Shown here: in pieces, positions 7,525 through 29,808 of the stretch
How positions within the stretch are numbered: position 1 is the first letter of the stretch
Layout: the number at the start of each line of letters is the position of its first letter
Origin: a virus
Lineage: Duplodnaviria; Heunggongvirae; Uroviricota; Caudoviricetes
IMG/VR virus record: IMGVR_UViG_2531839450_000016
Span: 1 to 33,778 of that record
Direction: 5' to 3' (one strand)
Length of the DNA stretch: 33,778 bases
Notes under the pieces: model-generated
What the model saw: only the letters and a program-made list of their open reading frames with translations
Databases searched by the model: none
What the model was told of the DNA's origin: nothing
Made by a program: the position numbers and the translations under genes

Positions 7525-8097
7525 TCAGGGGGATTCATTGCTCTTATTTGCCGGAAATTTTCTATAAATTGTGGAAACACCCACATCAAAAATCAGTGCA
7601 ATACGCTGTCTTGATTCTCCGGCCTCGAGTAAACGTCCAATCTGTGCCCACTGTTCGGTGGTCAACTTAGGACGGCGTCCACCTACTCTGCCTTTAGCAC
7701 GAGCTGCAGCCAGCCCCGCCCTGGTACGTTCAACTATCAGTTCGCGTTCCATTTCAGCCAGGGCCCCCATGACATGAAAAAAGAAACGGCCCATTGGGGT
7801 GCTGGTATCAATACTGTCAGTCAGGCTTCGGAAATTCACGCCACGCTGGCGCAGCTCTTCTATCAGCGTAACGAGATGCCGCATACTGCGCCCCAACCTG
7901 TCCAGCTTCCAGACAACCAGAGTGTCACCTGCCGATAATGTCCTGAGCAGTTTTTTCAGTCCCGGTCTGTCGGACTTAGTGCCACTGATTTTGTCCTCAA
8001 AAATCCGCTCACATCCCGCGCAGTTCAGTGCATTACGTTGCAAATCGGTGTTCTGGTCATTTGTTGACACGCGTACATAGCCAATAAGCATGATCAA
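7525..8097 (-). CDS. Serine DNA invertase (Hin/Gin/Cin/Pin family)
   Basis: 190-aa ORF with the resolvase/invertase catalytic N-terminus (GYVRVSTNDQ...) and C-terminal HTH (SRQRIALIFDVGVSTIYR); lies beside a segment bounded by inverted gix/cix-like sites. Confidence 0.9.
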   Translation of the reverse strand: MIMLIGYVRVSTNDQNTDLQRNALNCAGCERIFEDKISGTKSDRPGLKKLLRTLSAGDTLVVWKLDRLGRSMRHLVTLIEELRQRGVNFRSLTDSIDTSTPMGRFFFHVMGALAEMERELIVERTRAGLAAARAKGRVGGRRPKLTTEQWAQIGRLLEAGESRQRIALIFDVGVSTIYRKFPANKSNESP

Positions 8098-8146
8098 TCC
8101 CCTGAATAAAAACCGGGGATGATGCCAGTTAGCTGTTACCTCTGCA

Positions 8147-8172
8147 TTTTCTTAAACGTTGGTTTGGGAGAA
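8147..8172. repeat. Invertase crossover site 1 (cix/gix-like 26-mer)
   Basis: TTTTCTTAAACGTTGGTTTGGGAGAA; its reverse complement shares the 14-nt TTCTCCCAAACCAA with the site at 9677-9702; fits the TTnTnnnAAACC-nn-GGTTTnnnAnAA pattern of Din-family sites. Confidence 0.7.
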
Positions 8173-8526
8173 GCGGCAAAACGAAATGTGGGTAACGAGC
8201 AAAACCAAATTCCGGATATGGCGGCGTTTGCCAGTTCACTTTCATCAACGGGTTTTCAAAAACTCCCTTCAGGTCTGATTATTCAGTGGGGTATAGTCAG
8301 TGGAGCATCAAACTATACGGTGACTTACCCGGTAACATTCCCAAATCGTTCACTTGCGCTGTTGGCTGTACCACATACAACGTCGGTGGCGGGTATATCT
8401 GCAATGGGCATAGCGAACTGTTCTGATATCAGCAAATCACAGTTCTATATAATTGTTGGCGGTATATCTCAGGGAGAAATTGTCAAATATGAAAGGTCCT
8501 GTTTTTGGGTAGCAATCGGTGTATAG
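8161..8526 (+). CDS. Silent alternative tail-fibre C-terminal cassette (would fuse to H after inversion)
   Basis: Open frame begins at the crossover site with GLGE, the same junction residues as in H (..AYLGLGELS..); shares LIIQWG with the expressed H C-terminus; has no constant N-terminal part in this orientation. Confidence 0.6.
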   Translation, partial: GLGEAAKRNVGNEQNQIPDMAAFASSLSSTGFQKLPSGLIIQWGIVSGASNYTVTYPVTFPNRSLALLAVPHTTSVAGISAMGIANCSDISKSQFYIIVGGISQGEIVKYERSCFWVAIGV

Positions 8527-8534
8527 GTATATCT

Positions 8535-8930
8535 ATGATTTATTTCTCAAAATCGACTAATGGTTTTTTCTTCGATGGTATAAACAGTGACATGCCTGCT
8601 GACATTGTTGAGATATGTACAGACTTATACAATGAATTAATTGCCGGACAGCAGGAAGGGGGTAAATTAATTACGTCAGATGAAAATGGTTTACCGGTAC
8701 TAAAATCCCCGGCGATTGATTATGTCGCACGTGCGGAAAATCAGCGAATGCAGTTACTTGCTCATGCCGATAATGTCACAGCTGACTGGCGAGTGGAATT
8801 AATGCTTGGTGATATTAGCAGTACAGATAAAGAAAAACTATCCGCCTGGATGGACTACAAAAAAGAAGTAAAAGCCGTCGACACTTCGACGGCTCCTGAG
8901 ATTAGCTGGCCTGAGTTACCGGAGGTGTAG
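8535..8930 (+). CDS. Alternative tail-fibre assembly chaperone
   Basis: ORF starting MIYFSKSTNGFFFDG..., ending ...VDTSTAPEISWPELPEV, the typical C-terminus of tail-fibre assembly proteins; follows the silent cassette. Confidence 0.7.
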   Translation: MIYFSKSTNGFFFDGINSDMPADIVEICTDLYNELIAGQQEGGKLITSDENGLPVLKSPAIDYVARAENQRMQLLAHADNVTADWRVELMLGDISSTDKEKLSAWMDYKKEVKAVDTSTAPEISWPELPEV

Positions 8931-9339
8931 GCCATTCAATATCTGGAGCACTGGAGGTATCCACCAGTTCCAGTGCGTCCAGGTAATCCAGCCACAAATT
9001 ATATAGTGCCAGTTCCTCACCTTTCAGACGACCAATAGCTGCTTTGCCAGGCCATTGCTTACTGTTCATGTATTCGTTGGCCTGATTAAGCAATAATTGC
9101 CTTTCTGTTTCTGCCTGTTGAATAAGTTCTTCATGTGATGGTGGAGGTATTAGTGCCCATGTGGGTAATCCATTTTTTCCTGCAACACGAATTTTGTCAT
9201 CTGGGGGCGTATTGATTGCAAATTCATTATAAACATCATCACTGACAGCCAGAGCATCATCTGGCCATGAATTTGCATTAATGTAATCATCCTTAAGCGC
9301 AGGATTCACAAAAATGTTTAAAGATGGACTATAAAACAT
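8902..9339 (-). CDS. Tail-fibre assembly chaperone (expressed orientation)
   Basis: 145-aa ORF immediately downstream of H, ending ...LVDTSSAPDIEWPTPPV. Confidence 0.8.
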   Translation of the reverse strand: MFYSPSLNIFVNPALKDDYINANSWPDDALAVSDDVYNEFAINTPPDDKIRVAGKNGLPTWALIPPPSHEELIQQAETERQLLLNQANEYMNSKQWPGKAAIGRLKGEELALYNLWLDYLDALELVDTSSAPDIEWPTPPVTQAS

Positions 9340-9340
9340 A

Positions 9341-10738
9341 TTACACCCCTATAGCGATATAACGACCTAATACAGCGTTTGCAGCAGTCGCTATGCTTGA
9401 AAAACCGCGGAACTGATTTGATGTAATTGCAGAAGCCGACAGGATTCCTGCGCCTGAAGGTGTATGCCCCACATGACTAACTATCATTCCATAACATGCT
9501 GACGGAAAGGCAAAAGGAAAATCATTAAGATATCCGGCATCTTCACCACCAGACCCACCAAATCTCGCCTGCCCCCACTGAATAATCAGTGTTCTCCGGG
9601 AACCTGAAATAATTAACGGAATCGTTACATACCCATTCAGACCAATGACACCCGATGCAGTGCCAGCCAGAGATAATTCTCCCAAACCAAGGTATGCGAG
9701 AAGACCAGCTACATCCTTTCCACTCAAATTAGTCAGCGTATTGTCCAGCGGTTGTTTACCTGCTAGCGCATTAAGCATTGTCGTGGCAAAGTTCGGGTCA
9801 TTCCCCAGCGCCGCCGCCAGTTCGTTCAATGTATCCAGTGCCGCAGGTGCAGAACCCACCATTCCTGCAATCGCCGATTTCACAAAAGCCGTAGTGGCAA
9901 TCTGTGTATTGTTGACCGACTGTGCCGCAGTAGGTGCTGTTGGCGTTCCGGTAAGTGCCGGACTCGACAGCGGCGCTTTCAGTGCCAGCGCATTATTAAT
10001 AGTGGTACTGAATTTCGGGTCATTGTTAATGGCTGCGGCAATTTCTTTCAGCGTGTCCAGCGTGGCTGGCGCACCATTAATCAGGGTCGTCAGTGCCGCC
10101 TGAACAAACGCGGTCGTAGCAAGTTGCGTGGTATTATTCCCCACCGCTGGCGTTGGCGCTTTGGGGGTTCCGGTAAATGTCGGGCTGGCTTTTGGCGCGT
10201 ACTGTGAATGTGGGTCCTGTGCAGCAAGATGTTTTGCCATCAGGTCAACCACGTACACCTTCAGCTCCAGTACCTTGTCATCCACATACTTGCGGGTTGC
10301 CAGCACTACGGCAGGGTCGATTTTCAGGGTGATATTGTCCGTGCTGCTGGTAATCAGCACCATGCGCACGGTCTGGGTACGCCCGCTGCCTTCAGCCAGT
10401 TGCGGCTTATAGCTTTCCGGGCAGTTGCCCACGGCAATCAATGCCCCGGACTCATCAAACAGACCCACTTCACGTATCCACCAACCGCCCTCGTTTTCAG
10501 GGATCACCTGTTCAGCAATAATCTGGCTGCTGTTCTGCGGGTCGATATAGAGCATATTCAGCGCAGCCCGGCGTTTCTCATTTACTAATGCTGTCTGCTT
10601 TGCGTCCGGCGTTGGCAATGTTCCGCCGCCATCGCCGACCGCCATATGGGTAATTTTTAAAGGCACACCGAGCGCGGCGGCGCTGGCAAGTTTCGCCGCG
10701 CCAATATCCGTTAGCAGGGTATAAAATTTTGTGCTCAT
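9341..10738 (-). CDS. H: Tail fibre protein gpH (constant part 9703-10738, variable C-terminus 9341-9676 inside the invertible segment)
   Basis: 465-aa ORF between I and the assembly chaperone with repeated Ala/Thr-rich fibre motifs (e.g. TQLATTAFV and TQIATTAFV); crossover site embedded in the coding sequence. Confidence 0.85.
   Translation of the reverse strand: MSTKFYTLLTDIGAAKLASAAALGVPLKITHMAVGDGGGTLPTPDAKQTALVNEKRRAALNMLYIDPQNSSQIIAEQVIPENEGGWWIREVGLFDESGALIAVGNCPESYKPQLAEGSGRTQTVRMVLITSSTDNITLKIDPAVVLATRKYVDDKVLELKVYVVDLMAKHLAAQDPHSQYAPKASPTFTGTPKAPTPAVGNNTTQLATTAFVQAALTTLINGAPATLDTLKEIAAAINNDPKFSTTINNALALKAPLSSPALTGTPTAPTAAQSVNNTQIATTAFVKSAIAGMVGSAPAALDTLNELAAALGNDPNFATTMLNALAGKQPLDNTLTNLSGKDVAGLLAYLGLGELSLAGTASGVIGLNGYVTIPLIISGSRRTLIIQWGQARFGGSGGEDAGYLNDFPFAFPSACYGMIVSHVGHTPSGAGILSASAITSNQFRGFSSIATAANAVLGRYIAIGV
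9677..9702. repeat. Invertase crossover site 2 (cix/gix-like 26-mer) inside H
   Basis: TTCTCCCAAACCAAGGTATGCGAGAA, an inverted partner of 8147-8172. Confidence 0.7.
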
Positions 10739-12241: not shown

Positions 12242-12587
12242 TCTCTGCTCCTGTTGATACGGAAAGGGAAACAGGCACACCGTTATTACGCCGCCCGGCC
12301 AGGTCCACCACCATAGAACCGTCAAAGTTGCTGTTGATGGTGATGGAATCCAGCGTCAGCCGTGGCTCCCAGCGACTCAGCGCCACATACACTGCCGACA
12401 TGACCTGCAGGCGTAATGCCGGATTTTGTGGCTGGTCTATCAGTGCCGACAGCAGGGAACCATATTCCCGACGGGCAATGCGGCTACCCTGTGGCGTCAG
12501 CAGAATGTCCCGCACCGACTGGCGCAGATGGTCAATATCAGTAATGGCTTTGCCGCTGGTATTGTTCATCCCGCTATAAAGCGTCAT
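12228..12587 (-). CDS. W: Baseplate protein gpW (gp25-like)
   Basis: 119-aa ORF between V and J; P2 synteny and size. Confidence 0.8.
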   Translation of the reverse strand: MTLYSGMNNTSGKAITDIDHLRQSVRDILLTPQGSRIARREYGSLLSALIDQPQNPALRLQVMSAVYVALSRWEPRLTLDSITINSNFDGSMVVDLAGRRNNGVPVSLSVSTGAENGSD

Positions 12588-13162
12588 ACCGGTCCTCCGG
12601 TTGTGTCGCCGCCTTTCAGGACGCCAGTATGCTGATGCGCATCAACCACGATCCCCCTGGAACTCATTGCACCGCCGCCCTGGGTAACGCCACCATTGAT
12701 CACCACTTCGCTGTTAATACGCGTGCGGTCAGCCTCCAGCACAAACTCACTGGTTTTCATGGTGATGTTGTCAGCGGCCTCAATGACCATTGATTTGATG
12801 CCCCTGACATACCAGCGCCCGGTGGCGGGTTCGTATTCAAACCAGCCGCCGTCAGGATGTTCTGTCACGCAGGCGTCTGCCGACGTCGACGGTGGCGCGA
12901 ACTGATTCGAATAGACAGCGGGCAGCGCAAAGGCGGTTTCCAGATTTCCGCCCAGACTCAGCAGCACCACCTGCTCACCTTCCGATGGTCGCCACCATGT
13001 CCGGGCATTCCCGGCACGCAGCGTCAGCCAGCTGATCCAGTTGGTTTCAAGCTCGCCCGTTTTCACCCGGCAAAGCCAGTTCTCCCGATCCACTTCGGTG
13101 ACTACACCAGTGCGGATCAGGTTGGTGATAAGGCGCATGATTTCGGTTAGTTGTGCGTTCAT
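12584..13162 (-). CDS. V: Baseplate spike protein gpV
   Basis: 192-aa ORF, first gene downstream of the late-promoter dyad; P2 synteny. Confidence 0.85.
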   Translation of the reverse strand: MNAQLTEIMRLITNLIRTGVVTEVDRENWLCRVKTGELETNWISWLTLRAGNARTWWRPSEGEQVVLLSLGGNLETAFALPAVYSNQFAPPSTSADACVTEHPDGGWFEYEPATGRWYVRGIKSMVIEAADNITMKTSEFVLEADRTRINSEVVINGGVTQGGGAMSSRGIVVDAHQHTGVLKGGDTTGGPV

Positions 13163-13205
13163 CTACTAAGGATGATGAATTATCGACTTCTACGGTAGAT
13201 CAGGT

Positions 13206-13231
13206 ACATTGTGCTATAAATGGCACAATGT
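13206..13231. promoter_or_regulatory. Candidate Ogr-binding dyad of the late promoter for the V-W-J-I-H operon
   Basis: Perfect palindrome ACATTGTGC-N8-GCACAATGT containing TGT-N12-ACA, about 56 bp upstream of the V start codon. Confidence 0.5.
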
Positions 13232-13254
13232 ATCTTCCAAGGATAAAATTTAAG

Positions 13255-13914
13255 ATGATGGTTCTTGACGAACAAAAATATAACGAAATATTGAAAACAA
13301 TGGAAAAACGAGCTAGCCGCTCTAAAATTACTACGCTCTTATTTTTATATATTTTATTAACTGCTGTACTCTGCATTCCTGCAACTTATATTTTTTATAA
13401 AGCAGAAAGTAATAAGCGTGACAATGCACTTGCCTCACTTAGATTGAGCTCTCAGCAAATAGAATCTGCTTTCGAAAAGTTCACCATCATGCAACAGTTA
13501 ACTGATAAACTTGCACAAGCATCAGAAAACCTCAACGCTTCAAAAAATTCAAATCCGATAATCAAAAAAAATGAATCAGGTATTAATTCAACATACCTAA
13601 ATACTAAAAGCACCTTTGAAAAAGCCATTGAAACCGCGGCACCTTATTTACTAATCTTATCTGGGATATTATTCACTGGATATATACTTCGGTTATTTAT
13701 TGTGTTCATTAAATACAACATGCAAATGAGCAACGACTATGACAACCAGAGAATTGCATTCTTACTATCGCAAGGTGATACTGATGAGTTCGGCAAAATC
13801 ATTCAAACATTACGTGAACACAATGTAAGTTTCGAAAAAACCCCCAATCTACTTCAAGAAAAAATCATCATAGAATTAATGAGTCTTTTACGCTCATCCA
13901 AAAATAAGAGCTAA
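13255..13914 (+). CDS. AT-rich accessory (moron) gene encoding a two-transmembrane-helix protein of unknown function
   Basis: ORF on the strand opposite to the flanking late genes; AAGGA ribosome-binding site before the ATG at 13255; hydrophobic segments ITTLLFLYILLTAVLCIPATYIFY and PYLLILSGILFTGYILRLFIVFI; strongly A/T-biased codon use. Confidence 0.6.
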   Translation: MMVLDEQKYNEILKTMEKRASRSKITTLLFLYILLTAVLCIPATYIFYKAESNKRDNALASLRLSSQQIESAFEKFTIMQQLTDKLAQASENLNASKNSNPIIKKNESGINSTYLNTKSTFEKAIETAAPYLLILSGILFTGYILRLFIVFIKYNMQMSNDYDNQRIAFLLSQGDTDEFGKIIQTLREHNVSFEKTPNLLQEKIIIELMSLLRSSKNKS

Positions 13915-14387
13915 CTTATAAGCCATCGAACTAGGATATTCCTAGTTCGAGTTTCTACTTCATCATTCCCCCCTAACAAACGACGCTCTGCATAACGGAC
14001 CTCTGGTCCTTTGCGGCTGACGCGATCACGCAGGCCGTAATGGTGAACGCGGGCAATGCGCTGTACCTTGCCTTCAAACTGCACGCTGGCAGAGTCGGCG
14101 CTGGCGGCAGTTTTCAGGTATTTTGTGGTGCGAAGCTTTGCAAACATCTGGCGTTTGATGCGTCCCTTTTTACTGCGTATTGTAACCCGTCGCGGTTCAT
14201 AACTGCTGCCATCAGGATTGCGCTGCATCCTGATGTTCTGCTGCTGTGTCCGGCGCAGTTCCTGCGCCAGCTGACGCATCATGCGGCTTCTTGCGGCTGG
14301 TTCCAGATTCGCCAGTAAGGCACTAAGCCAGTCGTCCACCTTCTGTAGTTCAGCCACGTTTAACCGTCCACATTTCTTCAGGTTCAT
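13911..14387 (-). CDS. S: Tail completion protein gpS
   Basis: 158-aa ORF downstream of R; P2 synteny. Confidence 0.8.
   Translation of the reverse strand: MNLKKCGRLNVAELQKVDDWLSALLANLEPAARSRMMRQLAQELRRTQQQNIRMQRNPDGSSYEPRRVTIRSKKGRIKRQMFAKLRTTKYLKTAASADSASVQFEGKVQRIARVHHYGLRDRVSRKGPEVRYAERRLLGGNDEVETRTRNILVRWLIS
13927..13949. terminator. Perfect 9-bp hairpin downstream of the moron gene, inside the 3' end of S
   Basis: CGAACTAGG-atatt-CCTAGTTCG read directly; not followed by a clear T-run, so function is uncertain. Confidence 0.35.
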
Positions 14388-22305: not shown

Positions 22306-23385
22306 CTAACATTGTTTACATAAATCAGAAAAACTACCACCGAAATAATACAGTGCAGATTTATCATTTAGTTCTTTAAAAACTTCACACGCACGCTGGT
22401 GTATCTCAATAGCACTAGATTTATTTCGCCCAATAATAACAGTCTCTTTTTCAGTACTATCGCCATCCAGAAAAGTCTTCAAAAGAAAATTAATAATAAA
22501 GTCTTCCTTTGGGAAAGAATAACCTATAAAGATCAACAGATCTGCTTGTCTCAACTGGGTAGAGGATTTCACAAAAGCTGTCTTAAAGTATTTATCCCCA
22601 TAGTCTTGTTCATTTGAAGGCAAGATAATATTTGGAACAACTTTTGCGTTTAATAATGAATCATAATCTATTTTAAAACCATCCCTTGCAGCAACAACCT
22701 CAAATCCTCCATTAAGCTTATACAAACCTATACCTTTAGGCTGAGGACACACTAATATATTATTATGATGCACAGGAAAACCCCGATTAACTGAACGTTC
22801 AGGGAATGCATGATGTAGCACTTTATCAATAACTATATCGTAGTTTGTTGTGACTACATCCAGTGCTGAAGCTTCCTGTAAACTCTTAAAGAAAGAAATA
22901 ATATTCCTTTTATTCTGCCCAAATTTTGCAGTTTGACTTAGCTTTAAATCATTTGCCGGTATTTTTTTTGCAAACTTATTTTTTACATATAGTTTTACTT
23001 GTGCCTCAAACAACTCAAGCGTATGCCTATCAAGATACGACGGCAATAAACTTGGATATCGCTTATAAACATCCAATGCATATTTAAAACTCTTGAAAAC
23101 ATTAGCTTTGTCATCTAAACCTGCATTAGCATCCGCCCATTTAAATTTAAGACTGTCGAACAAAGAAAAAAAACCATACTCATCAATATTTTCTAATGCT
23201 TCGTCTTCAGAGATGGAAAAGACTTCATTACTCAATGGGTATTTGTCATCCCAGGCTTTAGAAAATCCTGCTCCGAGAAAAACACATACTCTTCGCTCTC
23301 TTATTTTTGATTTCAATGTGGCGAAGGATGTAATTTCTAAATTATTAGGTGTCAAAATATCACCATCATAAGCAAAGCTAGTCAT
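22306..23385 (-). CDS. SIR2-like domain protein (putative NAD-dependent effector), second gene of an accessory cassette
   Basis: 359-aa ORF carrying, in order, VCVFLGAGFSKAW, VVTTNYD, YKLNGG and LLIFIGYSFPKED, which match the motif order of SIR2-like defence domains as I recall them; strongly AT-rich; starts 13 nt after the ATPase stop. Confidence 0.6.
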   Translation of the reverse strand: MTSFAYDGDILTPNNLEITSFATLKSKIRERRVCVFLGAGFSKAWDDKYPLSNEVFSISEDEALENIDEYGFFSLFDSLKFKWADANAGLDDKANVFKSFKYALDVYKRYPSLLPSYLDRHTLELFEAQVKLYVKNKFAKKIPANDLKLSQTAKFGQNKRNIISFFKSLQEASALDVVTTNYDIVIDKVLHHAFPERSVNRGFPVHHNNILVCPQPKGIGLYKLNGGFEVVAARDGFKIDYDSLLNAKVVPNIILPSNEQDYGDKYFKTAFVKSSTQLRQADLLIFIGYSFPKEDFIINFLLKTFLDGDSTEKETVIIGRNKSSAIEIHQRACEVFKELNDKSALYYFGGSFSDLCKQC

Positions 23386-23398
23386 GTTTTTCTCACGC

Positions 23399-24628
23399 TT
23401 AGTTTTTTATATCAAGAAAAGCTGGAACTAATCCAAATTCGCCACGTAAATATTTGGCAGACACTTTAGCATCTTTCCTTACAGAAAATACCGTAGCATT
23501 AGTTATTATCGACGCTTTAGATGAATCCTTGACTATAATATTAAGCTCATCTCTTCTAAACACATCATCTAATAAAGGAATATTATGTGTAGACATAATA
23601 AACTGCACACCATTTTTACGGCAGGTTTTATCAAATATTTTTTTGATTAGTGCACTTGCCAAAGAATAGTGAATAGATGAATCTATTTCATCCACATAAA
23701 GTGTAAAATCATATTCACTAGCCCAAATCAATATTGCTAAAAATGTTAAAACATTTAGTGTGCCTTGGGAAAAAAATTCATCCCTACGGTCAGGGCCTAT
23801 TCTAGTAAAATCACCATCATCATTTTTTATGAGATAAACAAATTTATACTCATTATCTTCGCCAAATCTTACAAATTCAACTTTATCTATATGCAGCGGC
23901 GACTGAATAACCATTTCATTATAGGTATTTAAAATTCTTTGACCACTCTCATTTAATTTTTCATTTCCTTCCTCACCTGATAACTGGCGCTTAAGTTGTC
24001 CTTCAACAAATTTAAGACTTGGATTTTTGAATTTTTCAGAGTAATAAGGCAATTGTTTTAATGCCCAGCGTTGGGTTTCAACAAGAGCATCAATTTCTAA
24101 AGATTTTGCAAAAGTTACAACAGCTCCACTTTCTCTTAAGACAGGATTAATCAACGACTCGTATTTTTTTAAGTCGGGCTTTTTGAAAACCAACCCATTT
24201 TCATTGCGAATAAAAATACATTGTTCCCTTGCATTTTTTCTTATCGGTCTAATGTATAAATACTCATCTACAATAACTTCATTTAAAACTGACACACCAT
24301 AACGGACGAAGTTTTTTTGCTCTTCATCAATCAGTATCGCTTCATAGGAAGTAGGTTTGTTACGACATTCCTTATTTAGAAGGAAAGGCATATGCAATTT
24401 GTGTAATGTGTCACTATGAATTGAATTTGCAAATTCAGTAATAGCATTTATTAATTGTGTTTTACCAACACCATTTCCGCCTATTAATGCGGCAAATCTG
24501 TTTACTCTTAAACCATTCGCTAATGTCACGATATGTTCAGGATGCTCATCCCCAATTGAGGAAGCAAAACTAAGAACCTGTCTTTCGCGAAAGCTCTTGT
24601 AATTTTCTAAACTGAATGCAACTAGCAT
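23399..24628 (-). CDS. ABC-type (AAA_15/AAA_21-like) ATPase, first gene of an accessory cassette
   Basis: 409-aa ORF; N-terminal MLVAFSLENYKSF followed by Walker A GGNGVGKT at about residue 50; C-terminal LYVDEIDSSIH (Walker B/D-loop) and STHN (H-loop-like); GAGGA ribosome-binding site 6 nt before the ATG; AT-rich. Confidence 0.7.
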   Translation of the reverse strand: MLVAFSLENYKSFRERQVLSFASSIGDEHPEHIVTLANGLRVNRFAALIGGNGVGKTQLINAITEFANSIHSDTLHKLHMPFLLNKECRNKPTSYEAILIDEEQKNFVRYGVSVLNEVIVDEYLYIRPIRKNAREQCIFIRNENGLVFKKPDLKKYESLINPVLRESGAVVTFAKSLEIDALVETQRWALKQLPYYSEKFKNPSLKFVEGQLKRQLSGEEGNEKLNESGQRILNTYNEMVIQSPLHIDKVEFVRFGEDNEYKFVYLIKNDDGDFTRIGPDRRDEFFSQGTLNVLTFLAILIWASEYDFTLYVDEIDSSIHYSLASALIKKIFDKTCRKNGVQFIMSTHNIPLLDDVFRRDELNIIVKDSSKASIITNATVFSVRKDAKVSAKYLRGEFGLVPAFLDIKN

Positions 24629-26317: not shown

Positions 26318-28732
26318 TTAATACAGGTTCCGCCACTTATCATCTTCCTGCAAACGCTGGTTCCGATAGAAGATACGCAGGCCTGCTCCTGACGGAATAC
26401 TGCCTCCGCGAAGGAGTAAATCGACCTCTTTCTCGCTGCCATCAAATCCTCTGGACTTCAGCTCATACACGAGCTGCAGTCGCTGATGGTCTGTAATTCG
26501 CTGTTTGTAGTCTTTACGCCGTTTCGGTTTCACCAGGCGTAACCTTGCTGCCAGTTCCCGGCACTCTTTTTTGCTCATACTGTGCAGGTAATCGTGCAAC
26601 TCCTTGTCATCCATGCGGGTAATATCCGTTCTGGTGTCCCCATCAGCTGATTTATCTTTCTCCTGTTGGTTCAAATTTTCAGCAAGGGGACAGTTATTGC
26701 CACGAGTCCAAGGGGCGCAAGCGCCCTGGTCGGCTACCGCCTCCTGAACGTCAACGGCCTTACGAACCATTTTCCACTTCACTGCATGAGTGCAGATCTT
26801 GCCCTCTGAAATGGGTGACCAGATGCCATAAATACGAATACCGTGATCGCCATAGGCGGTCGGCTCTTCGTTGATTTCATAAGCGGTTCTGATGAGGTGA
26901 TATTTACGGGGAACCAGTACGCCGCCCTGCTTCATGATGTAGGAGGCAAAACAACCAGCATCAGCAGCAGCCAGGATGGCATCAAGGCGCGGGTTATCCA
27001 GTACCGGCGCACCTGCTTTTTTGTCCCCCTGTTGCCTTGCCGCCTGACCAGCCAGCAATCGCAGTTCACGGTAAGCCTGACGCCCCGGAATGCCAAAGAA
27101 GCGGAATTGCTGAACACGATGCAGAGACGCCCAGGCATTAACGTATTCAGCGTTATCACGCAGGGATTTACCCGTTTCCTTGCTGATCTCACCAGCCAGA
27201 CCACGCCCGTCAATGTTCTTACTGATGTATTTCGCGATGTAGCTTGTTGGCGTACCTTTGCGCGGGTTTATCAGCTCAGACTTAAAGCGTGGTCCCGTGT
27301 TATTACCCAGCTCCTCGCGGTCTTCACGAATGGCAAACTTACGCAACAAAGCAGTAATGGCTCGGCGATCTTTTTTGCGCATAAAACACAACAGGTGCCA
27401 GTGAACTGTACCGTCATGATGCGGCTCAGCCACCCGCACGCCATACCAGCGCAATCCGGCTTTGTGCATCGCTTTACGAAATGCAGCAAACATGCCGACC
27501 AGATAATCACTGCTTTGTCTTACCGTCGCGTTTGTCCAGGTCGGGTTTGGTCTGCCGTTATTTAGCGTGGAATGGAAACGTGACGGACAGGTGATGGTGT
27601 AGAAAACGGCGCAGTCACCGCGCATTTCCGCGATAAGCTCCAGACCTTTAACACAGGCCATCATCTCATTGCGGCGATGCGCAGGGTTGCTGCTGCTGGC
27701 GTTTACCACATCCTCCATGTCCAGCGTGTCGCCGTCTTCGTTCACCAGTTCATGAGAACGGAAAAACTCCAGCGACTTACGGCGCTGCTCACGTTTATGC
27801 AACACGGCTTCATAGCTGACATAGGGAGATACTTTTTTGCTGACAAGGCAGACAGCACGCAACTGCTCTTCCCGCCATTCGCAACGCATCTTCCATAATT
27901 TCCGATACCACCAGTCGGCGCATAACATACGCGCCAGCGAACCCGGAATGAGTTCATAAGGCACGGGTTTACGGCGGTTTCTTTTCCGACGGAGTTGCTC
28001 AAACGCAGGCGGGATAACATCCAGACGCAGGGTTTCCGCTGCCACCTTTTCCCATGTCTTGCGGATTTCTTCTGGCGTAACATCATCGGTGGCATACAAA
28101 TCGCCACAAGCTGTATCAAGGCACATGCTCATATGCGCAGCTACCAAGGTGGACAGGCGTTTCACCTGATCCTGACTCATTTCAGGCAGGATCAGCAGGC
28201 CGTCCAGCCCTTCATGGCTTGCCATAAAGCGAAAAGAAGTGGATAGCTGACTGTCGCGTACATGCTCCAGTCGTTCCAAGCATGGCTTAATCGTCTCACG
28301 CAAATAGCGGGAATAAGCCTTTGGCCTGCCCAGGCTGCTGAAGTATTTAATACGTTGCATCAGCGGCTTGCTGATATGGGAAGGCTGGGCGTTGACGTCC
28401 GCCAGAATGGCCATGTCTGGATTAAAACGCTGCTGCTCATGCGCCAGCTTTGCCCGGCTAATTAGCTTATCCTGCTCCATTTCGCGTTGGACAGGATCAC
28501 GGGATTCATTAAAGAAATAACGCTCCCAGACCTGATCACTCAGTGCCTCGCGGCGTAGTTGTTCCTGCTCGTTATCGGCAGCGTACAGAGTGATCAGGTT
28601 TGAAAGCGCAGAAACCGGCGCAACTTCCGCCGGGTCCAGATAAGGGTTAATGGCCTTTTTCGGGCTGTTCCATGAGAATGCTGCGGCGACCTCGTTAAAG
28701 CCGCTGCAGTTGTTCATATCAGCATGGCTCAT
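26318..28732 (-). CDS. A: Replication initiation endonuclease gpA (rolling-circle initiator)
   Basis: Large ORF with a His-rich motif ([14 protein letters not shown]) consistent with a rolling-circle Rep metal site; probable start ATG at 28730-28732, overlapping the Dam stop (ATGA). Confidence 0.9.
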
Positions 28733-29586
28733 GCACGCACTCCGTACACGACGGAACAATCCACGCCACGCGAAGGATCAAATCCTACCCAGCAGCGCGG
28801 CCCGGAAACAGCGATGATTTCTGTTGCTGATTTACTCTCACCAGCTGCTACGCCGATGCTGCGTTTTACCTTGATATAGTGGTGAGTAAAATTGCGATAC
28901 AGCGAACGGATCAGGGATGTGTCACTGTTAGAAACAATGACCGGATGTCCTTCTGATGACCGATGTTCAAGAACGGATGCCAGGTGATACTGGTCATCTT
29001 CAGTAAAGCCGTCAGCGTGATAGCCGGAAAACGTACCGTCATAAGGCGGATCGCAATACACCACATCCCCCGCCTTCAACATCGCCAGCGTTTCATCAAA
29101 GCTGGCGCAGATAAACGTTGCTCGCTGGGCTTTTTCTGCAAAAGCGCGAATTTCTTTTTCAGGGAAATACGGATTTTTATAATTACCGTAGGGAATGTTG
29201 AAATGCCCGCTCTTGTTATAGCGACATAACCCACGGTAACCGTGACGATTGAGATACAGGAAATATACCGCTTTCATGAAATCAGTAATTTCAGTTGAGT
29301 AATTAAACTCCTGCCTTATGTTGTAATAAGCCACCTCCCTGTTTGCGATCTCAAATAAAACTTTGGCGCGAGATATAAACAATTCACAATCAGCGGCAAC
29401 CTTTTTATAGAGGTTGATTAAATCAGGATTAATATCCGCAACCAGATAGCAGGGATAATCCGTCTCCATCATCACAGCACAGGAACCCGCGAAAGGTTCA
29501 ACTAGTCGCGGACCAGCAGGAAGATGTTTTTTCAGTTCGGACATTACGGCGGTTTTATTTCCCGCCCATTTCAGGATGGTGCTCAT
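28729..29586 (-). CDS. dam: DNA adenine methyltransferase (Dam family)
   Basis: From the internal Met: [11 protein letters not shown]... (the N-terminal motif typical of Dam) and DPPY catalytic motif (VYCDPPYDG); start ATG overlaps the stop of the TraR-like frame (ATGA). Confidence 0.85.
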
Positions 29587-29808
29587 ACAGCACCTCCGTT
29601 GTAATGTTTGCCTTTCAGCTCTGCGATTTCCTGACAGGTAATGCAAAGCTGCACCCGGAATGGCACGGCGGCGTGCTGGCGGAATTGGCGCTTCACACTC
29701 AACGCAAAGCACGCGGGACACGCCCGGCGTTTTGGCACGGGCAGCACGGATATGGCGCTGGCGTTCTTCTTCAACGCGCTGCTGTACGAGATCCATTGCA
29801 TCAGCCAT
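29583..29808 (-). CDS. TraR/DksA-like C4 zinc-finger protein, apparently frameshifted in this sequence
   Basis: The N-terminal half in one frame (..LCVECEAPIPPARRRAIPG) and the C-terminal half in the +1 frame (..QLCITCQEIAELKGKHY..) together match the TraR pattern C-x2-C-x17-C-x2-C; the frames switch near 29650-29660 at a CCC/GG run. Confidence 0.5.

Follow-up and report, generated by a model that had tools for sequence, protein, structure and literature searches.

A probable invertase-driven tail-fiber switch in a Fels-2-like, P2-related Escherichia coli prophage

Does the locus between genes FI and H of the prophage recorded as IMGVR_UViG_2531839450_000016 act as a switch between two tail-fiber tips, and, if so, what agent inverts its DNA? 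The whole stretch analyzed here, referred to as the window (33,778 nucleotides, 33.8 kb), is a complete Fels-2-like, P2-related Escherichia coli prophage. Next to FI it carries a gene for a serine DNA invertase and, beyond that gene, a segment of about 1.5 kb that holds two opposed sets of fiber-tip and chaperone genes. We consider the locus, with a probability of about 0.9, to be a two-state, invertase-driven tail-fiber switch of the Mu G-segment/Fels-2 fin type.

The gene order in the window is ogr, D, U, T, E, FII, FI, the invertase module, G, H, I, J, W, V and onwards. Its open reading frames (ORFs) are collinear with Fels-2 and with the annotated prophage of E. coli strain D9, where the base after ybjL corresponds to the left end of the window. 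This collinearity places the module between FI and H-G, the position of Z/fun in P2, as proposed in the first-pass annotation, which had been made from the sequence without database searches. According to a 2024 preprint, the P2 Z/fun hotspot often holds a DNA invertase accompanied by inverted neighboring genes. Among phage records, Cartapus (from E. coli LF82), a P2-related phage near Fels-2 (PMC9928086), is the closest.

Invertase, crossover sites and alternative fiber tips

The invertase gene lies on the minus strand (7525–8091) and encodes a Din-family serine DNA invertase of 188 residues, homologous to Gin, Cin and Fin. The family and the place assigned to it earlier both stand, but the start has to be moved: ATG at 8091 is likelier than the TTG at 8097 noted at first, since it gives the N-terminus MLIGYVRVS, which Gin shares and which RefSeq assigns to the invertase of the 99.8%-identical D9 prophage. 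Pfam detects a Resolvase domain (residues 5–137, E = 2.3e-53) and a C-terminal HTH_7 domain (residues 140–183, E = 1.5e-15), and the protein matches the DNA invertase family phrog_125 (8.8e-101) and the structure of Gin (PDB 3uj3, E = 8e-93, residues 1–184). Its identity is 79.1% to P1 Cin and 74.6% to Mu Gin, and over 186 of its 188 residues it matches the Cartapus invertase without a single difference (100%). Ser9 lies within YVRVSTNDQ, and MLIGYVRVSTNDQ aligns residue for residue with Gin. The ORF is intact, contains every catalytic-domain motif, and has the length (∼190 residues), the resolvase domain, the serine near residue 9–10 and the C-terminal helix-turn-helix of the small serine recombinases of the Din family. 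In the NCBIfam search, the invertase gave only matches below cutoff, and the fiber and chaperone proteins gave none.

Two inverted 26-bp sites flank the segment. The invertase-proximal site (8147–8172) reads TTTTCTTAAACG-TT-GGTTTGGGAGAA, with the crossover dinucleotide at 8159–8160, and precedes the invertase start by 55 bp. The H-proximal site (9677–9702) reads TTCTCCCAAACC-AA-GGTATGCGAGAA, with the crossover dinucleotide at 9689–9690. A repeat finder returned the same arms as had been picked out in the first reading, with 81% complementarity over 26 bp, and the perfect inverted core of 14 bp claimed there is present as TTGGTTTGGGAGAA (8159–8172) and TTCTCCCAAACCAA (9677–9690). When aligned to gix and hix, the sites have the 12-2-12 layout common to gixL and gixR of Mu, which were cut out where the Mu record places the ends of the G segment, and to the sites of Fels-2. 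Their outer half-sites are imperfect, as are those of Mu. Inversion by serine invertases needs a matching, asymmetric central dinucleotide; the one found here is asymmetric and agrees between the sites when one of them is read as its reverse complement. The spacing between site and invertase start is 54 bp in both Mu and Fels-2, compared to 55 bp in the window.

The gix/hix-type pattern TTCTCNNAAACCNNGGTTTNNGAGAA, with up to three mismatches allowed, has just two matches in the 33.8-kb window, where 0.01 would be expected; none of 100 shuffled sequences reached two. A third or cryptic site was not found in the window, either at up to three mismatches or at a looser score threshold. A shufflon-like system of multiple inversions, such as Min of p15B or the three-repeat P2-like locus of enteropathogenic E. 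coli (EPEC), was considered and rejected, as the window has only two sites.

The sites double as coding sequence within a conserved fiber motif, YLGLGE. The peptide encoded at the site, on the coding strand of H, is LAYLGLGE in the window, LTYLGLGE in Fels-2 and IQNLGLQE in Mu. The core is TT in the window and in the published repeat of the e14 element, compared to TC in Mu and Fels-2, a difference between the synonymous leucine codons CTT and CTC.

The segment length of 1556 bp given previously is correct for the span that includes both sites, while the DNA exchanged from crossover to crossover amounts to 1530 bp (8160 to 9689). The G+C content of the segment is 0.42–0.43, compared to 0.53–0.58 in the flanking tail genes. 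As the first-pass annotation had described, Pfam matches and translations reveal two opposed cassette sets, with one fiber tip and one chaperone on each strand, and both tips begin with GLGE at the junction, or more fully with LGLGE, a peptide that the site itself encodes.

In the native orientation, the full H gene (9341–10738, minus strand) combines a Phage_tail_fib N-terminus with a Gp53-like_C domain. Its constant part, ∼350 residues, lies outside the segment (9690–10738, minus strand; Phage_tail_fib N-terminal domain 3.1e-65, phrog_327 6.9e-165) and is the same in flipped and unflipped relatives. The variable C-terminus in the expressed position, Hv, extends over ∼116 residues from LGLGE (9341–9689, minus strand) and matches Gp53-like_C (PF21882, 3.1e-11, H residues 384–464). 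Directly after it comes a G-like tail-fiber assembly chaperone of 145 residues (8902–9339, minus strand; Caudo_TAP 3e-33, phrog_188 1.6e-58). On the plus strand lies the presumably silent alternative C-terminus, Hv' (8158–8526, ∼122 residues from LGLGE; PF21882 2.1e-15), followed by its own chaperone of 131 residues (8535–8930; Caudo_TAP 9e-24, phrog_188 2.4e-40). The two chaperone genes are convergent, and the 3' end of 8902–9339 overlaps the opposed gene by 29 bp. A terminator-like hairpin, recognized by consensus match, with a 12-pair stem followed by a T-run (8870–8897, minus strand), is located just downstream of the expressed chaperone gene and within the 3' end of the opposed one. Hv and Hv' share only 35% identity over 65 residues; between the chaperones the figure is 27%. 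A search of solved structures with the fiber tips gave only weak matches (4mtm, E = 1e-4; 9d93, on shaft repeats) and no clue to a receptor.

Hv' is in frame with the constant part of H only after inversion. When the segment is flipped in silico at the central TT/AA, H reads in frame into the plus-strand cassette (...AYLGLGEAAKRN...), ending in WVAIGV and a stop codon, with the second chaperone gene directly downstream. The native translation runs ...AYLGLGE-LSLAG...IGV-stop, and the flipped one ...AYLGLGE-AAKRN...IGV-stop. Since the sites lie within the coding sequence of the YLGLGE motif, each orientation gives an in-frame fusion.

Orientation of the segment in related genomes

Complete E. 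coli genomes were searched with the native and the in silico flipped versions of the locus. The native 3.4-kb stretch is covered to at least 80% in 29 genomes (best in D9 and D4, at 99.8%) and the flipped version in 12 genomes; CFSAN064036 matches the flipped sequence in one piece over 100% of its length. With junction-specific queries of 301 nucleotides, the Hv' cassette was found adjoining the invertase gene, the silent position, in 61 complete genomes; in 35 it is joined to the constant part of H.

Strains N17 and N24 do not differ over 9402 bp apart from a block of 1481 bp, delimited by the sites, that is exactly reverse-complemented. In Combat13F7, one prophage (99.8% identity) is found both on the chromosome (NZ_CP019245.1) and in an extra record of 45 kb, and the segment between its two sites has opposite orientations in the two. 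As each pair differs at the locus by a clean inversion alone, these events appear to be very recent. Contrary to a fixed arrangement next to an unrelated recombinase, the outcome against which the first-pass annotation had set its proposal, both orientations are thus present in public genomes, in near-isogenic strains and within one assembly, and the invertase is a Din-family enzyme. Inversion of the segment occurs in nature, in relatives of this prophage.

The extra record of Combat13F7, pCombat13F7-1 (NZ_CP019246.1, 45 kb), is deposited as a circular plasmid. It repeats the chromosomal P2-like prophage over the 15.4 kb compared, with the fiber segment flipped and with frameshifted genes. In all probability it is no true plasmid but arose when a phage population that was excised or mixed in orientation was assembled. 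Spurious extra replicons can come about in this way whenever a mixed population is assembled. The same two-state arrangement affects annotation: automated pipelines enter the silent cassette as a gene in its own right, and the same prophage is reported with two different H proteins.

Two further features of the segment were observed. In N17 and Combat13F7, relatives in which a different tip is expressed, similarity to the window ends inside the chaperone gene 8902–9339, at ∼9084 and 9195. The C-terminal 60–100 residues of the chaperone are common to these strains and the window, while its N-terminal part has been swapped together with the fiber tip. The segment also contains a perfect inverted repeat of 17 nucleotides (8275–8291 and 9573–9589) at equivalent positions of both tips, where the very same codons specify LIIQWG in two sequences that otherwise have only ∼35% identity. 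We considered this repeat as a second recombination site or a mosaic joint and rejected both: it is not similar to a Din site, and the inversion breakpoints and breaks in homology lie elsewhere (at the 26-bp sites, and at 9084 and 9195, respectively).

The natural breakpoints also bear on the agent of inversion. Homologous recombination by the host RecA between inverted repeats could in principle invert the segment, with the invertase an incidental neighbor. Inverted repeats by themselves do allow rare RecA-dependent inversion, and the 17-nucleotide inner repeat would offer a second substrate. However, the perfect repeat at the sites in the window is only 14 bp long, too short for efficient RecA recombination, and the breakpoints fall in the gix-type sites and not at the longer inner repeat. 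The sites, moreover, have the 12-2-12 layout of Din sites and a Mu-like spacing from a homologue of Gin. We therefore regard inversion by RecA as extremely unlikely and favor the invertase as the agent.

Proposed switching, its regulation and the surrounding prophage

By analogy with Gin, Hin and Cin, the invertase would bind the two inverted 26-bp sites, cleave both at the central TT/AA and exchange strands, probably in a synapse (invertasome) that depends on Fis and an enhancer, thereby inverting the 1530 bp between the crossovers. Either orientation would join the ∼350-residue constant part of H in frame to one of two unrelated gp53-like tips of ∼115 residues, and would at the same time bring the chaperone gene that belongs to this tip into the position right behind it in the late tail operon. 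The same systems suggest that only the cassette linked to this operon is expressed while the other stays silent. As each orientation provides one tip and its matching chaperone, a lysogen population would release virions with either tip, most likely directed at different receptors or hosts; the divergence of the two tips would fit different receptors. Both tips must be counted when host range is predicted for P2-like prophages or when tailocins are engineered.

Regulation by Fis and an enhancer appears plausible by homology. M114V is a Fis-independent change. The invertase has the wild-type H106 and M114, whereas position 114 is Val in the 3uj3 crystal protein and Met in Mu gin; retention of the wild-type M114 makes Fis/enhancer control plausible. 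A recombinational enhancer is annotated within the 5' end of P1 cin (nucleotides 19–90 of the gene in the P1 record), and the homologous stretch of the window (8002–8073, minus strand), which is 72–83% identical to cin, gin and fin, may have the same role. Third-codon-position identity of the invertase gene is 0.61 in nucleotides 1–60, compared to ∼0.4 elsewhere, and 15-mers of the form G-N13-C at nucleotides 22–36 and 71–85 of the gene are common to the window, Mu and Fels-2.

Several points weigh against the proposed switch or parts of it. Synonymous conservation in nucleotides 19–90 is not significantly raised over the rest of the gene (identical codons 10/19 versus 46/112, 8/22 versus 43/104 and 12/23 versus 44/122). 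A simple scan recognized no sigma-70-like promoter for the invertase; promoter-like sites are no commoner in the region than in shuffled sequence, so that the scan is uninformative there. The activity of the switch in this very prophage is deduced from its near-identical relatives, and the expectation that the two tips confer different host ranges comes from Mu and P1. Finally, for Cartapus, a close relative, no indicator strain could be found (PMC9928086).

Some of these points would also fit a fossil switch, in which the invertase or the sites are inactive, the orientation is frozen, and the differences between genomes stem from ancient events or from recombination between prophages. The promoter scan and the imperfect outer half-sites could be taken in this sense. 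Yet such half-sites are normal for gix, including those of Mu, and for hix, the invertase ORF retains all its catalytic-domain motifs, and the clean, site-bounded inversions in N17/N24 and Combat13F7, which appear very recent, contradict this reading. The left site of the window is also identical to that of an EPEC locus that flips in culture (see below). A fossil switch is therefore very unlikely, and the active, invertase-driven one remains our preferred interpretation.

A different kind of function is suggested by e14, where the P segment with PinQ/StfE2 provides a precedent published in 2025 (PMC12529663): the locus could serve the host as a recombinase-controlled defense of the lysogen, one orientation yielding a fiber-tip product that blocks receptors against other phages. 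The e14 repeat, AAACCTTGGTTTGGGAGAA, has the inner half-site and the core of the window sites, and the silent cassette can be read as an ATG-initiated ORF (8119–8526). This ORF, delimited mechanically, takes its ATG from outside the segment, and RefSeq annotates the version in relatives as a gene. However, the consensus scan predicted no sigma-70-like promoter facing the plus-strand cassette or the 8119 ORF, in a region where the scan is uninformative, the number of promoter-like sites being no higher than in shuffled sequence. The prophage, moreover, is complete and apparently functional, with all P2 structural genes present, so that a function on the side of the phage is a sufficient explanation. 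A defense role in place of the phage switch thus seems very improbable. There is also a small chance that, in addition to switching the fibers, the module has some role in the lysogen: the invertase might act in trans on other resident Din sites, which is conceivable as the e14 repeat has the inner half-site and TT core of the window sites, or the product of 8119–8526 might be a free receptor-binding tip that keeps competing phages from adsorbing, an exclusion under recombinase control of the kind reported for PinQ and StfE2.

Elsewhere in the prophage, three other regions deserve mention. On the plus strand, an ORF of 253 residues (13153–13914, G+C 0.335) lies opposite to and between the baseplate gene V (12584–13162) and an S-like tail-completion gene (13911–14387). 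It is absent from the D9 prophage, which is 99.8% identical over the compared 3.4-kb invertase-fiber region, and CFSAN064036 carries another gene in its place. The protein matches phrog_2611, a family of unknown function, and has a weak, sub-threshold DUF3112 match; a PADLOC search gave no match. This position may be a further cargo hotspot of these phages. The P2 old/tin hotspot, immediately behind the portal gene, is occupied by a minus-strand gene pair of low G+C content (22306–24628; 0.32–0.34), encoding an AbiLi-like/AAA_21 ATPase of 409 residues (PADLOC AbiLi, 2.2e-51) and a SIR2-like protein of 359 residues (SIR2_2, 1.3e-8). The two genes are a candidate anti-phage defense pair. Lastly, a mechanically called minus-strand ORF of 359 residues (28729–29808) joins a TraR/DksA zinc finger (residues 33–54) to a Dam-type D12 methyltransferase domain (residues 81–318). 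The D9 annotation splits its equivalent into two overlapping genes, and the ORF could be either a real fusion or a mere upstream extension.

Comparison with known systems

The module is already known. Annotations of Fels-2, Cartapus and many E. coli prophages include it, measurements of its flipping exist, and an invertase at Z/fun is in print. The locus therefore carries little weight as a discovery and is best seen as an ordinary feature that had been described before in Fels-2-like, P2-related prophages.

The P segment of e14 (E. coli K-12, invertase Pin), compared here by its published repeat, shares the inner half-site and TT core and likewise has alternative fiber C-termini. It differs in being part of a defective lambdoid element and in the context of another fiber gene family. 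The C segment of P1 and P7 is similar in that the S protein has alternative C-termini, each with its own chaperone, and in its closely related invertase Cin. The orientation differs: cin points towards the segment, with its 3' end abutting cixL, while the site in the window lies upstream of the gene.

In this respect the window follows Mu. The first-pass annotation had named the Mu G segment and the P1 C segment together as the model architecture; the Mu arrangement, with a site ∼55 bp upstream of an invertase gene that is transcribed away from the segment, applies here, whereas the P1 arrangement does not. The order in Mu is also that of the window: constant fiber, site, variable end, chaperone, chaperone', variable end', site and invertase. 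The 26-bp sites of Mu have the same half-site consensus and encode the related peptide NLGLQE, with a TC/GA core in place of TT/AA. Mu is otherwise an unrelated phage, and its segment of 3 kb and variable ends of ∼330 residues are larger than those of the window (1.5 kb and ∼115 residues).

Closer still is the simple P2 locus of EPEC E2348/69 (NC_011601.1, 2977580–2979467), with a fiber end, chaperone, chaperone', gp53-like end, invertase and FI as in the window. Its invertase-proximal site is identical to the left site of the window at 26 of 26 positions, its distal site is identical in the inner half and the core, and its invertase is 80% identical. However, the EPEC locus is a remnant in which H is truncated beside an integrase fragment, and its cassettes are 73–79% similar over parts only. 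By sequencing cultures grown from single colonies, Goldberg et al. found coexisting orientations in the P2-like prophages of E2348/69, with 93 ± 4% forward at this simple locus (PMC4272514).

The nearest relative by lineage is the fin module of Fels-2 in Salmonella Typhimurium LT2 (STM2702–STM2706; Peduoviridae, genus Felsduovirus). It shares the gene order of the window, with FI, the DNA invertase STM2702, an alternative H end, two G-like chaperones, H, I, J, W and V, as well as the layout of the sites, the YLGLGE peptide and the position of a site 54–55 bp upstream of the invertase start. The two modules differ in the crossover dinucleotide (TC/GA in Fels-2, TT/AA in the window), in variable cassettes that are unrelated in sequence, and in the length of the segment (∼2.7 kb versus ∼1.5 kb). 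The Fels-2 segment is inverted between strains LT2 and LT7, a change that has been attributed to fin (PMC7953296).

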